A stretch of DNA of 26,147 bases from Escherichia coli (GCF_003334355.1 NZ_QOWP01000043.1); one strand, 5' to 3'. Counted from the first letter of the stretch, positions 21,797 through 26,053 are shown. Translations and numbers: made by a program. The notes: generated by a model not told the origin, from the sequence alone.

Positions 21797-24700
21797 ATGT
21801 CACATTATAAAACAGGTCATAAACAACCACGATTTCGTTATTCAGTTCTGGCCCGCTGCGTGGCGTGGGCAAATATCTCTGTTCAGGTTCTTTTTCCACT
21901 CGCTGTCACCTTTACCCCAGTAATGGCGGCACGTGCGCAGCATGCGGTTCAGCCACGGTTGAGCATGGGAAATACTACGGTAACTGCTGATAATAACGTG
22001 GAGAAAAATGTCGCGTCGTTTGCCGCAAATGCCGGGACATTTTTAAGCAGTCAGCCAGATAGCGATGCGACACGTAACTTTATTACCGGAATGGCCACAG
22101 CTAAAGCTAACCAGGAAATACTGGAGTGGCTCGGGAAATATGGTACTGCGCGCGTCAAACTGAATGTCGATAAAGATTTCTCGCTGAAGGATTCTTCGCT
22201 GGAAATGCTTTATCCGATTTATGATACGCCAACAAATATGTTGTTCACTCAGGGAGCAATACATCGTACCGACGATCGTACTCAGTCAAATATTGGTTTT
22301 GGCTGGCGTCATTTTTCAGGAAATGACTGGATGGCGGGGGTGAACACCTTTATCGACCATGATTTATCCCGTAGTCATACCCGCATTGGTGTTGGTGCGG
22401 AATACTGGCGCGATTATCTGAAACTGAGCGCCAATGGTTATATCCGGGCTTCTGGCTGGAAAAAATCGCCGGATGTTGAGGATTATCAGGAACGCCCGGC
22501 GAATGGCTGGGATATTCGTGCTGAGGGCTATTTACCCGCCTGGCCGCAGCTTGGCGCAAGCCTGATGTATGAACAGTATTATGGCGATGAAGTCGGGCTG
22601 TTTGGTAAAGATAAGCGCCAGAAAGACCCGCATGCTATTTCTGCCGAGGTGACCTATACGCCAGTGCCTCTTCTGACACTGAGCGCCGGGCATAAGCAGG
22701 GCAAGAGTGGTGAGAATGACACTCGCTTTGGCCTGGAAGTTAATTATCGGATTGGCGAACCTCTGGCGAAACAACTCGATACAGACAGCATTCGCGAGCG
22801 TCGGGTACTGGCAGGCAGCCGCTATGACCTGGTTGAGCGTAATAACAACATCGTTCTTGAGTACCGCAAATCTGAAGTGATCCGTATTGCTCTGCCTGAA
22901 CGTATTGAAGGTAAGGGTGGTCAGACACTTTCCCTGGGGCTTGTGGTCAGCAAAGCAACTCACGGACTGAAAAATGTGCAGTGGGAAGCGCCGTCATTAC
23001 TGGCTGAGGGTGGCAAAATTACCGGTCAGGGTAGTCAGTGGCAAGTAACGCTCCCGGCTTATCGTCCAGGCAAAGACAATTATTATGCGATTTCTGCGGT
23101 TGCCTACGATAACAAAGGCAATGCCTCAAAACGCGTGCAGACAGAGGTGGTCATTACCGGAGCAGGTATGAGCGCCGATCGCACGGCGTTAACGCTTGAC
23201 GGTCAGAGCCGTATTCAAATGCTTGCTAACGGTAATGAGCAAAGACCGCTGGTGCTGTCTCTGCGCGACGCCGAGGGGCAGCCAGTCACGGGCATGAAAG
23301 ATCAGATCAAGACTGAACTAGCCTTCAAACCGGCTGGAAATATTGTGACTCGTTCCCTGAAGGCCACTAAATCACAGGCAAAGCCAACACTGGGTGAGTT
23401 CACCGAAACTGAAGCAGGGGTGTATCAGTCTGTCTTTACTACCGGAACGCAGTCAGGTGAGGCAACGATTACTGTTAGCGTTGATGGCATGAGCAAAACC
23501 GTCACTGCAGAACTGCGGGCCACGATGATGGATGTGGCAAACTCCACCCTGAGCGCTAACGAGCCGTCAGGTGATGTGGTTGCTGATGGTCAGCAAGCCT
23601 ATACGTTGACGTTGACTGCGGTGGACTCCGAGGGTAATCCGGTGACGGGAGAAGCCAGCCGCTTGCGATTTGTTCCGCAAGACACTAATGGTGTAACCGT
23701 TGGTGCCATTTCGGAAATAAAACCAGGCGTTTACAGCGCCACGGTTTCTTCGACCCGTGCCGGAAACGTTGTTGTGCGTGCTTTCAGCGAGCAGTATCAG
23801 CTGGGCACATTACAACAAACGCTGAAGTTTGTTGCCGGTCCGCTTGATGCAGCACATTCGTCCATCACCCTGAATCCTGATAAACCGGTGGTTGGCGGTA
23901 CAGTTACGGCAATCTGGACGGCAAAAGATGCCTATGACAACCCTGTGACCAGCCTCACGCCGGAAGCGCCGTCATTAGCGGGTGCCGCTGCTGTAGGTTC
24001 TACGGCATCTGGCTGGACAAATAATGGTGATGGGACGTGGACAGCGCAGATTACTCTCGGCTCTACGGCGGGTGAATTAGAAGTTATGCCGAAGCTAAAT
24101 GGACAGGATGCGGCAGCAAATGCGGCAAAAGTAACCGTGGTGGCTGATGCGTTATCTTCAAACCAGTCGAAAGTCTCTGTCGCAGAAGATCACGTAAAAG
24201 CCGGCGAAAGCACAACCGTGACGCTTATTGCAAAAGATGCACATGGCAACACTATCAGTGGTCTTTCGTTGTCGGCAAGTTTGACGGGGACCGCCTCTGA
24301 AGGGGCGACCGTTTCCAGTTGGACCGAAAAAGGTGACGGTTCCTATGTTGCTACGTTAACTACAGGCGGAAAGACGGGCGAGCTTCGTGTCATGCCGCTC
24401 TTCAACGGCCAGCCAGCAGCCACCGAAGCCGCGCAGTTGACGGTCATCGCCGGAGAGATGTCATCAGCGAACTCTACGCTTGTTGCGGCCAATAAGGCTC
24501 CGACCGTCAAAATGACGACGGAACTCACCTTCACCGTGAAGGATGCGTACGGGAACCCGGTCACCGGGCTGAAGCCAGATGCACCAGTGTTTAGCGGTGC
24601 CGCCAGCACGGGGAGTGAGCGTCCTTCAGCAGGAAACTGGACAGAGAAAGGTAATGGGGTCTACGTGGCGACCTTAACGCTGGGATCTGCCGCGGGTCAG

Positions 24701-26053
24701 TTGTCTGTGATGCCGCGAGTGAACGGCCAAAATGCCGTTGCTCAGCCACTGGTGCTGAACGTTGCAGGTGACGCATCTAAGGCTGAGATTCGTGATATGA
24801 CAGTGAAGGTTAATAACCAACTGGCTAATGGACAGTCTGCTAACCAGATAACCCTGACCGTCGTGGACAGCTATGGTAACCCGTTGCAGGGGCAAGAAGT
24901 TACGCTGACTTTACCGCAGGGTGTGACCAGCAAGACGGGGAATACAGTAACAACCAATGCGGCAGGGAAAGTGGACATTGAGCTTATGTCAACGGTTGCG
25001 GGGGAACACAGCATCACGGCCTCAGTGAATAATGCTCAGAAGACGGTTACGGTGAAATTCAAGGCGGATTTCAGTACCGGTCAGGCGACCCTGGAGGTTG
25101 ATGGCAGCACGCCAAAAGTGGCAAACGACAATGATGCCTTTACGCTGACGGCAACGGTTAAGGATCAATACGGCAACCTTCTGCCTGGCGCTGTGGTCGT
25201 CTTTAATCTGCCTCGGGGCGTCAAACCGCTTGCAGACGGTAATATCATGGTGAACGCCGACAAGGAGGGTAAAGCGGAACTGAAAGTGGTCTCCGTGACT
25301 GCCGGAACGTATGAGATCACGGCGTCGGCAGGAAATGACCAGCCTTCGAATGCGCAGTCTGTAACGTTTGTGGCCGATAAGACTACGGCGACCATCTCCA
25401 GTATTGAGGTGATTGGCAACCGTGCAGTGGCGGATGGCAAAACCAAACAGACGTATAAAGTTACGGTGACTGATGCCAATAACAACCTGTTGAAGGATAG
25501 CGACGTGACGCTGACTGCCAGCTCGGAAAATTTAGTTCTGGATCCTAAAGGGACGGCGAAAACTAATGAGCAAGGACAGGCTGTTTTCACCGGCTCTACC
25601 ACTATCGCAGCGACATATACACTCACGGCGAAAGTGGAACAGGCCAACGGTCAGGTATCGACGAAAACTGCTGAATCTAAATTCGTCGCGGATGATAAAA
25701 ACGCGGTGCTCGCCGCATCTCCAGAACGTGTAGATTCTCTGGTGGCGGACGGGAAGACTACTGCAACAATGACGGTTACCCTGATGGCGGGAGTCAATCC
25801 CGTAGGAGGAAGTATGTGGGTCGACATTGAGGCTCCGGAAGGAGTGACGGAGAAGGATTATCAATTCCTGCCGTCGAAGGCTGACCATTTCTCAGGTGGG
25901 AAAATCACGCGTACATTTAGTACCAGCAAGCCAGGTGTCTATACGTTCACATTCAACGCACTGACGTATGGCGGGTACGAAATGACGCCTGTGAAGGTGA
26001 CAATTAACGCCGTTGCTGCAGAGACTGAAAATGGCGAGGAGGAGATGCCATAA
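21797..26053 (+). CDS. fdeC: Intimin/invasin-like adhesin FdeC (EaeH), full length, with tandem bacterial Ig-like domains
   Basis: 1418-aa ORF; N-terminus MSHYKTGHKQPRFRYSVLARCVAWANISVQVLFPLAVTFTPVMAARAQ recognised as EaeH/FdeC. C-terminal two-thirds contain repeated Ig-like units (e.g. WTNNGDGTWTAQITLGSTAGELEVMPKLNGQ, WTEKGDGSYVATLTTGGKTGELRVMPLFNGQ, WTEKGNGVYVATLTLGSAAGQLSVMPRVNGQ). Confidence 0.88.
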   Translation: MSHYKTGHKQPRFRYSVLARCVAWANISVQVLFPLAVTFTPVMAARAQHAVQPRLSMGNTTVTADNNVEKNVASFAANAGTFLSSQPDSDATRNFITGMATAKANQEILEWLGKYGTARVKLNVDKDFSLKDSSLEMLYPIYDTPTNMLFTQGAIHRTDDRTQSNIGFGWRHFSGNDWMAGVNTFIDHDLSRSHTRIGVGAEYWRDYLKLSANGYIRASGWKKSPDVEDYQERPANGWDIRAEGYLPAWPQLGASLMYEQYYGDEVGLFGKDKRQKDPHAISAEVTYTPVPLLTLSAGHKQGKSGENDTRFGLEVNYRIGEPLAKQLDTDSIRERRVLAGSRYDLVERNNNIVLEYRKSEVIRIALPERIEGKGGQTLSLGLVVSKATHGLKNVQWEAPSLLAEGGKITGQGSQWQVTLPAYRPGKDNYYAISAVAYDNKGNASKRVQTEVVITGAGMSADRTALTLDGQSRIQMLANGNEQRPLVLSLRDAEGQPVTGMKDQIKTELAFKPAGNIVTRSLKATKSQAKPTLGEFTETEAGVYQSVFTTGTQSGEATITVSVDGMSKTVTAELRATMMDVANSTLSANEPSGDVVADGQQAYTLTLTAVDSEGNPVTGEASRLRFVPQDTNGVTVGAISEIKPGVYSATVSSTRAGNVVVRAFSEQYQLGTLQQTLKFVAGPLDAAHSSITLNPDKPVVGGTVTAIWTAKDAYDNPVTSLTPEAPSLAGAAAVGSTASGWTNNGDGTWTAQITLGSTAGELEVMPKLNGQDAAANAAKVTVVADALSSNQSKVSVAEDHVKAGESTTVTLIAKDAHGNTISGLSLSASLTGTASEGATVSSWTEKGDGSYVATLTTGGKTGELRVMPLFNGQPAATEAAQLTVIAGEMSSANSTLVAANKAPTVKMTTELTFTVKDAYGNPVTGLKPDAPVFSGAASTGSERPSAGNWTEKGNGVYVATLTLGSAAGQLSVMPRVNGQNAVAQPLVLNVAGDASKAEIRDMTVKVNNQLANGQSANQITLTVVDSYGNPLQGQEVTLTLPQGVTSKTGNTVTTNAAGKVDIELMSTVAGEHSITASVNNAQKTVTVKFKADFSTGQATLEVDGSTPKVANDNDAFTLTATVKDQYGNLLPGAVVVFNLPRGVKPLADGNIMVNADKEGKAELKVVSVTAGTYEITASAGNDQPSNAQSVTFVADKTTATISSIEVIGNRAVADGKTKQTYKVTVTDANNNLLKDSDVTLTASSENLVLDPKGTAKTNEQGQAVFTGSTTIAATYTLTAKVEQANGQVSTKTAESKFVADDKNAVLAASPERVDSLVADGKTTATMTVTLMAGVNPVGGSMWVDIEAPEGVTEKDYQFLPSKADHFSGGKITRTFSTSKPGVYTFTFNALTYGGYEMTPVKVTINAVAAETENGEEEMP

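Follow-up and report, generated by a model that had tools for sequence, protein, structure and literature searches.

The fdeC (eaeH) adhesin gene of an Escherichia coli contig: ten diverged modules and a probable deletion hot spot at the D0/D1 linker

Gene identity and protein architecture

A stretch of 26,147 nucleotides (nt) of Escherichia coli DNA (GCF_003334355.1, NZ_QOWP01000043.1), the whole of which is here called the window, carries the adhesin gene fdeC (eaeH) at positions 21797..26053 on the plus strand. The open reading frame (ORF) begins with an ATG at 21797 and runs for 1418 codons to a single terminal stop, without internal stops, as had been described in an earlier note on this DNA, which saw in it an uninterrupted intimin/invasin-like ORF; apart from the usual shadow ORFs, neither strand has a long ORF that competes with it. 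A megablast comparison with 5426 finished E. coli genomes reveals that the gene is identical (100.0%) over all 4257 nt to one that in E. coli BE2-5 is annotated as fdeC (“inverse autotransporter adhesin FdeC”). At the protein level, amino acid (aa) residues 595-1008 match end to end the crystallised FdeC fragment (Protein Data Bank, PDB, 4e9l; E = 1e-247), with about a dozen substitutions in 414 residues (~97% identical), which is above the 90% identity to a characterised FdeC that is asked of an orthologue. The fdeC/eaeH name proposed in the note therefore stands. E. coli FdeC clusters P0001-P0082 share 91-100% protein identity with the window protein, which itself falls in the largest of them, P0043 (17949 members); alleles at least 99% identical to the window gene account for 1346 of the 5088 matching finished-genome records.

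The gene is thus almost certainly an intact, ordinary allele of fdeC, a broadly conserved type Ve (inverse autotransporter) adhesin gene of E. coli. Every tested feature of the translated sequence marks the predicted protein as an FdeC/EaeH orthologue and a member of the inverse autotransporters, and no feature speaks against the identification. What weighs on the other side is the behaviour of the NCBIfam models: eight inverse-autotransporter models match (IatC, Ilp, intimin, SinH and others), none of which reaches its curated cut-off, the scores and cut-offs being 642/2400 for IatC, 303/999 for SinH and 382/1400 for intimin_all. Since all scores lie far under the cut-offs, the protein belongs to none of those named families, and since no model passes, the name FdeC derives from near-identity to the annotated and the crystallised FdeC, not from a family hidden Markov model. 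The gene itself is already known, having been characterised and crystallised; it is broadly conserved and a vaccine candidate against extraintestinal pathogenic E. coli (ExPEC).

The protein features, given as window coordinates, strand and description (Ig, immunoglobulin), are as follows.

21797..21931, plus: signal-peptide region, putatively of the extended N-terminal kind (~aa 1-45, ending ...TPVMAA); a hydrophobic stretch read from the translation only
22022..22846, plus: inverse-autotransporter beta-barrel (aa 76-350); Pfam IAT_beta PF11924, E = 1.2e-107
22868..23206, plus: Ig-like module D0 (aa 358-470); aa 358-474 match the intimin D00-D0 structure 6tqd
23207..23524, plus: Ig-like module D1 (aa 471-576); Invasin_D3, E = 2.9e-9; a module-specific insertion of ~30 aa in the module alignment
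23525..23842, plus: Ig-like module D2 (aa 577-682); Invasin_D3, E = 4.7e-11, and Big_1, E = 1.2e-6; PDB 4e9l
23843..24154, plus: Ig-like module D3 (aa 683-786); Invasin_D3, E = 1.1e-10; PDB 4e9l; 41-46% identical to D4/D5
24155..24463, plus: Ig-like module D4 (aa 787-889); Invasin_D3, E = 3.4e-12; PDB 4e9l
24464..24781, plus: Ig-like module D5 (aa 890-995); Invasin_D3, E = 3.4e-11; BLASTP of D3 against D5, E = 2e-28
24782..25072, plus: Ig-like module D6 (aa 996-1092); Big_1, E = 4.4e-21
25073..25384, plus: Ig-like module D7 (aa 1093-1196); Big_1, E = 1.2e-16
25385..25699, plus: Ig-like module D8 (aa 1197-1301); Big_1, E = 1e-15
25700..26050, plus: distal module D9 (aa 1302-1418), weakly Ig-like; Invasin_D3 only, E = 3.1e-4

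Residues 113-357 match the solved barrels of invasin (4e1t, E = 6e-82) and intimin (4e1s, E = 4e-71). The barrel is N-terminal and the Big/Ig-like passenger C-terminal, which is the inverted topology of type Ve secretion, and according to Pfam the passenger (aa 358-1418) consists of ten Big_1/Invasin_D3 modules of 97-117 aa each. Ten Big domains are what is expected of FdeC/EaeH, in agreement with Heinz 2016 (PMC4943183). The tandem ~100-aa units of the earlier note are accordingly present, but they extend over 75% of the protein and not over its C-terminal two-thirds. No LysM domain is matched in the Pfam scan of aa 1-1199, and no C-terminal lectin-like domain (Tir-binding, C-type lectin) is matched by Pfam in aa 1001-1418.

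Distribution among finished genomes

Some match to fdeC is present in 5083 of the 5426 finished genomes, and at least 80% of the gene in 4586. The remark that this strain retains the adhesin is therefore true yet uninformative, as ~85% of finished E. coli genomes do so. The statement that fdeC is a pseudogene in K-12 is correct: K-12-derived genomes hold only nt 1-876 of the gene, followed by the insertion sequence (IS) IS3 and then by a truncated downstream regulator gene, and fdeC has been described as a pseudogene in MG1655, W3110 and DH10B (Nesta 2012, PMC3324786). A few non-chromosomal records carry fdeC or fdeC-like genes, namely NZ_CP117002.1 (a 108-kb plasmid), NZ_AP023209.1 (a 68.5-kb record) and a 231-kb record of NEB Turbo; plasmids account for 11 of the 5100 places matching fdeC, and one plasmid-borne gene has 82% identity across 91% of D0-D5.

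Relatedness of the modules

For comparison, the passenger was tiled as D0-D9 and pairs were examined module by module, the DNA being aligned by codon. Pairwise protein identity ranges from 18 to 46%, and only D3/D4/D5 (41-46%) and D6/D7 (38%) stand out; D3 and D5 are 45% identical (E = 2e-28), and the relationship of D0 to D7 is undetectable pairwise (E = 0.78). The codon-aligned DNA identity of module pairs is 34-51%, and the longest in-register exact run shared by two modules is 13 nt. Tandem Repeats Finder reports no tandem DNA repeats in fdeC, and a sensitive self-blastn of the gene returns only chance-level matches of 11-26 nt with E values of 0.015 or worse. No exact repeat in the gene exceeds 16 nt, the length of GGAAGCGCCGTCATTA at window positions 22984-22999 and 23962-23977, which is also reached in 2 of 200 codon shuffles; the two copies lie 978 nt apart, in frame, and encode the peptide EAPSL in D0 and D3.

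The earlier note had held that the units resemble one another in nucleotide sequence, closely enough for unequal homologous recombination to add or remove modules, so that domain number would vary between strains. The nucleotide similarity is not found, and near-identical tandem DNA repeats, the mark of a recombinogenic repeat-containing surface-protein gene, are absent. Homologous recombination drops steeply with sequence divergence, and Shen and Huang in 1986 reportedly put the perfect homology required for RecA/RecBCD recombination in E. coli at roughly 23-27 bp. With an identity of at most 51% and exact matches of at most 13 nt, which is under that length, homologous recombination between modules is unsupported. 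In the region singled out for a check of repeat identity, 23800-24800 (D3/D4/D5), the longest in-register exact run is 11 nt, which is the insufficiency of repeat identity that the note had itself named as fatal to its proposal.

The ten modules are on this evidence old duplicates, of which the fold and a few motifs (e.g., D-x-x-G-N-P-V-T-G) alone have been conserved, and the ten-module architecture is stable because the module DNA has diverged too far for homologous recombination. Its stability over thousands of genomes is reassuring for antigen design.

Length variants and their junctions

In a collection of 5.8 billion proteins lengths of 1413-1420 aa dominate among the FdeC sequences (in clusters with 17949, 3112 and 3064 members); rare shorter clusters span 1112-1394 aa, and a single form of 1630 aa has 234 members. 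Both the length variants of 1112-1327 aa and the 1630-aa form lend some support to a variable domain number. Module-by-module mapping places the real internal in-frame losses between D0 and D5. In finished genomes at least 80% of the D1-D3 block is kept in 4591 of 4651 cases and at least 80% of the D4-D6 block in 4604 of 4642, so that the loss of 20% or more of any three-module block affects at most 1.3% of finished genomes; these module-loss counts are upper bounds only, which likewise has to be set against the overall interpretation. All examples inspected from this tail are pseudogenes: HSP425 (a deletion of 665 nt), F11 (1271 nt), E89 (2471 nt) and GZ2408P (1145 nt). A probe for the junction of the 1112-aa allele is found in 0 of the 5426 finished genomes. 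The probe for the L019 junction (a 95-aa deletion) also matches intact genes at 100%, pieces closer than 600 nt being joined. Module number is essentially fixed across finished E. coli genomes; the domain-number variants sought by the earlier note thus exist as rare length variants, but the number itself hardly moves and the junctions, described below, are mostly out of register.

The four out-of-frame deletions examined in finished genomes (L003, L013, L014 and L021; 665, 1271, 2471 and 1145 nt) are all congruent to 2 modulo 3, which is probably a coincidence.

The in-frame deletions remove 24, 45, 91, 95, 107, 132, 156, 160, 196, 248, 270 or 306 aa. As whole-protein BLASTP of the variants yields misleading gapped high-scoring segment pairs, the junctions of the ten in-frame alleles whose DNA was recovered (L004, L005, L009-L012 and L017-L020) were located by minimum-mismatch breakpoint mapping. 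The exact microhomology at these junctions is 2, 3, 2, 5, 2, 3, 0, 2, 7 and 8 nt. Two of the ten lie in module register, L004 within the GNPVTG motif of D2 and D5 and L005 in the last strand of D0 and D1, as repeat-guided exchange would have it, but the other eight do not, the offset being 19-114 alignment columns at the four out-of-register junctions that were measured. The population accordingly does not show length changes by whole repeats that are joined within homologous stretches. That the ten alleles are in frame is an ascertainment effect, since they were found as proteins. The junctions are the signature of illegitimate, microhomology-mediated deletion and not of repeat-guided recombination.

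Recent duplication of a module was not seen in any variant. The 1630-aa form (L006-L008) possesses 12 modules, is 67% identical to the window protein and is labelled E. coli; its two extra modules, between D4 and D5, are 37-43% identical to their neighbours, from which it follows that they are ancient and not recent duplications. It occupies the same locus, with the same downstream AraC-type regulator and with sulfatase and radical-SAM genes upstream in place of ykgR. It is missing from all 5426 finished RefSeq genomes of E. coli, which makes a rare or cryptic lineage of Escherichia its probable source. Taken with module pairs that at best are about 50% identical in DNA, these results leave the proposal of recombinational gain and loss of modules with next to no credence. 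The length variants instead represent rare degenerative or neutral deletions that arise by illegitimate, microhomology-mediated joining and are concentrated at a site in the D0/D1 linker.

A recurrent deletion endpoint in the D0/D1 linker

Two sites of reused endpoints are listed here in window coordinates; neither has a strand.

23143..23168: deletion hot spot A, in the D0/D1 linker (gene nt 1347-1372, ...GGTGGTCATTACCGGAGCAGGTATG...), intact in the window; an endpoint in 7 of 13 deletion alleles and in GZ2408P
23964..23985: endpoint B, a secondary recurrent site (gene nt 2168-2189) where L011, L017, L013 (F11) and L010 have their right ends; overlaps the GGAAGCGCCGTCATTA copy at 23962-23977

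Of 13 deletion alleles that were found independently, seven have one of their ends at gene nt 1357-1372 (window 23153-23168, ...GGTCATTACCGGAGCAGGTATG...). Their partner ends all differ (nt 1225, 1645, 1647, 1680, 1840, 2104 and 2170), as do the allele backgrounds. A scan statistic gives P ~5e-6 for uniformly distributed endpoints and ~5.5e-5 when the null is limited to nt 1000-2800. Among finished genomes, 15 of 4634 show a break within a 120-nt probe that has the hot spot at its centre, compared with 1 of 4621 for a 120-nt control next to it (Fisher P = 5e-4) and 0 of 4448 for a 200-nt distal control. GZ2408P is among the genomes with a broken hot-spot probe and carries its frameshifting 1145-nt deletion from nt 1347-1349. 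Two further endpoints, nt 1839-1841 and nt 1644-1651, are used twice each. On these grounds the D0/D1 hot spot is probably real. Nothing relevant came up when the literature was searched for deletions or pseudogenes of fdeC, and the hot spot was not found described in it. At the main hot spot there is also a sequence, GGTCATTACCGG, related to GGAAGCGCCGTCATTA.

Could the shortened alleles be errors of assembly or sequencing? Short-read draft assemblies are the source of most of them, and several were observed only once; the 0-8 nt shared at the junctions is too little for a de Bruijn mis-join, however, several alleles are present on 2-21 contigs from different sources, and comparable deletions occur in finished chromosomes, which makes an artefact very unlikely.

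As to what focuses the deletions, our leading guess is a structural or slippage cause, with selection for the loss of D1 as a minority view and artefact as the unlikely one. Under the first, a local DNA feature at gene nt 1334-1393 would stall replication or be cleaved, and the free end would be rejoined downstream by microhomology. A fixed end with a variable partner in seven independent alleles of different backgrounds is what such a mechanism would leave, the excess of broken probes (15 against 1 and 0 in the controls) points the same way, and two of the events fall at 7-8 nt direct repeats of ATTACCGGA. The out-of-frame event in GZ2408P, at the hot spot itself, speaks for a bias in mutation and against selection alone. 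The local feature in question is an imperfect 60-nt quasi-palindrome at nt 1334-1393 (window 23130-23189; free energy, dG, -13.7 kcal/mol), which places the site within the second most stable distinct 60-nt hairpin of fdeC. When all positions of the gene are ranked in one way, however, the hairpin reaches the top 2.5% only for a length of 60 nt, as against 10% for 40 nt and 30% for 30 nt; the endpoints taken together are not associated with hairpins (P = 0.28-0.89), and in the 121-nt region folding does not differ significantly from that of shuffled sequences (z = -1.65). Strong by the best-window test and weakened by the per-position and global endpoint tests, the quasi-palindrome is a weak candidate cause. 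Against a mutational hot spot it also counts that five of the seven events have 3 nt of microhomology or less and that the 15 finished genomes with a broken probe may be clonally related. We hold this explanation tentatively, at a little under an even chance.

Selection offers a different account, in which only in-frame deletions that keep D0 and remove D1, with its unique exposed loop of ~30 aa, are tolerated or favoured, e.g., through immune or phage escape or through secretion competence. The first ~78 residues of D1 are lost in 7 of 12 in-frame alleles, and D1 carries a module-specific insertion. Proteinase K cuts FdeC into fragments of ~50 and ~100 kDa (Heinz 2016, PMC4943183), sizes that would put an exposed site near the D0/D1 boundary. 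The right ends, however, cut D1, D2 or D3 in mid-domain and leave untidy products, five left ends lie inside 5 nt, much more tightly than a tolerance zone as wide as the linker would require, and a frameshifting deletion is found in the same neighbourhood; we regard selection as unlikely to be the cause.

Two other causes were considered and rejected. The deletion alleles contain no IS, and in the one IS903-interrupted fdeC examined, that of AR_0014, the IS lies at the 3′-end, away from the hot spot. Self-targeting by clustered regularly interspaced short palindromic repeats (CRISPR) was rejected on weak evidence: a 200-nt hot-spot probe found only 3 extra places in 4637 records, so there is no common spacer matching the hot spot.

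Deletion hot spots at quasi-palindromes and short direct repeats in E. coli are reportedly a feature of the lacI mutation spectra of Glickman and Ripley (1984). The fdeC site resembles these in its recurrent RecA-independent deletions with very short junction homology and in a site that overlaps a potential hairpin; it differs in having one fixed end with a varying partner, mostly 3 nt of homology or less, and a statistically weak hairpin association. Whatever the cause, natural length variants of FdeC are non-random and concentrated at one 26-nt site. That fdeC possesses a natural, sequence-determined deletion hot spot from which shortened adhesins and pseudogenes arise repeatedly and independently in wild E. 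coli is a possibility that we consider doubtful as it stands; in its strongest form it would amount to a crude contingency mechanism that removes membrane-proximal modules (including the exposed loop of D1) from a vaccine-candidate antigen, or alters the reach of the adhesin from the cell surface. The hot spot, if confirmed in reads and by mutation accumulation, would be a clean natural case in E. coli of illegitimate recombination focused on one site, and would offer a predictable way for this antigen to be lost or shortened. The increment over routine annotation is small and is due to this site.

Allelic variation

Relative to the allele of uropathogenic E. coli (UPEC) UTI89, the ratio of nonsynonymous to synonymous substitutions (dN/dS) is 0.18 overall and 0.06-0.47 by module, the overall value indicating purifying selection on fdeC. 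The differences from UTI89 lie mainly in D0, D3 and D9: nt identity is 98% in D1, 90% in D0 and D3, and 85% in D9, the last 120 nt of which are only ~74% identical, and dS lies between 0.04 and 0.39 in the individual modules. Two large clusters, P0067 and P0079, share 91-100% of residues with the window allele up to D6 and 71-80% in D7-D9 (76-77% in D9), and D9 is the most variable part between alleles. Such patchy identity, together with a roughly tenfold range of dS, indicates mosaic exchange between alleles of different strains, and allelic diversity thus arises by inter-strain exchange, most strongly at the distal tip. Such mosaicism is known in outline from a published conservation map of subtypes (Heinz 2016, PMC4943183) and from the 755 variants of a Vet Res 2024 study.

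Predicted function and related adhesins

FdeC binds collagen and epithelial cells, is expressed on host contact and has a fitness role in urinary-tract infection (Nesta 2012, PMC3324786). Surface display dependent on the beta-barrel assembly machinery (BAM) and the translocation and assembly module (TAM) has been shown for CFT073 FdeC, with TAM-assisted assembly of a rod of ten Big domains (Heinz 2016, PMC4943183); for published function see also Goh 2019 (PMC6714894). The steps that follow are taken from the published biology of the family and extended to the window allele by virtue of near-identity. The long signal peptide would take the protein through Sec, and the N-terminal barrel, of 12 strands, would enter the outer membrane with the help of BAM and TAM, after which the C-terminal passenger would be threaded outwards to form a rod of ten Ig-like modules. 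The rod may bind collagens and epithelial cells and promote biofilm, and H-NS would as a rule keep the gene silent until temperature or contact with the host induces its expression.

FdeC of ExPEC IHE3034 (ECOK1_0290) and EaeH of enterotoxigenic E. coli (ETEC) H10407 represent the same gene at the same locus, in the same length class (1416-1418 aa) and with a barrel and ten Big modules; they show only allelic differences from the window allele. Intimin (EaeA) of enteropathogenic and enterohaemorrhagic E. coli (EPEC/EHEC) is alike in its barrel (4e1s, as above) and its Big passenger, and D0 of the window protein resembles intimin D00-D0 (6tqd). Unlike intimin, the window protein lacks LysM and the lectin-like Tir-binding domain, has ten Big modules to intimin's four and scores far under the NCBIfam cut-off (382 against 1400), and its gene lies outside the locus of enterocyte effacement (LEE) island. 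The likeness to invasin of Yersinia pseudotuberculosis consists of the barrel (4e1t, as above) and the Invasin_D3-type modules, a rod-like arrangement having been confirmed for FdeC region B (Nesta 2012, PMC3324786). The integrin-binding D4-D5 superdomain of invasin, however, is not detected in the window protein, which has twice as many modules. YeeJ, IatC and SinH, inverse autotransporters of E. coli and Salmonella, share the type of secretion and the modular Big passenger, but they have other loci and lengths, and their NCBIfam scores here are far under the cut-offs. Intimin, invasin, SinH, YeeJ and IatC were accordingly all rejected as names for the window protein by domains, scores and locus.

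Genomic setting and remainder of the window

Upstream of fdeC the window has the canonical order of the locus, with the pao operon, yagU, ykgJ, ecpEDCBA-ecpR, ykgL, ykgO, ykgM and ykgR. The expected series (ecp operon, ykgL/O/M/R, fdeC, AraC-type helix-turn-helix gene) is complete if one includes the last gene, which lies past the end of the window and is seen 3′ of the identical BE2-5 gene. Immediately before fdeC is one further feature.

21245..21796, plus: AT-rich intergenic region 5′ of fdeC, lying in annotated relatives between a short pseudogene remnant and fdeC

The GC fraction of the ~550 nt upstream of fdeC is 0.35-0.39, compared with 0.50-0.59 within the gene, and the region is likely to hold the promoter and an H-NS-silenced regulatory region. 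A study by Easton in 2014 reportedly deals with control of fdeC by H-NS and temperature, which the AT-rich region would fit. An Rfam scan gave no match in or near fdeC.

Further observations concern the remainder of the window. Its single Rfam match is to the IS009 RNA family at 11050-11249 on the plus strand, between yagU and ykgJ (202 bits, gathering threshold 117). The yagU gene (10431-11044) is frameshifted, with a stop in frame 0 after ~83 codons and the remainder in frame +2, and is annotated likewise in the near-identical strain rl0044. In the part that corresponds to window positions 9300-16800, BE2-5 has an IS3 in yagU and internal stops in ecpC and ecpD; the window has neither, and its ORFs of 841 and 547 aa are intact, so that it derives from a related strain other than BE2-5. 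Left of the pao operon, positions 1-4800 are accessory DNA with a PerC-family regulator (~2698-2979), a pRiA4b ORF-3 family protein (3583-4125) and several hypothetical ORFs, followed by the remnant of a LysR pseudogene at ~4821-5159. At least 80% of the 21.8-kb flank is present in 201 of the 5426 finished genomes, the first 78 nt falling outside the best matches.

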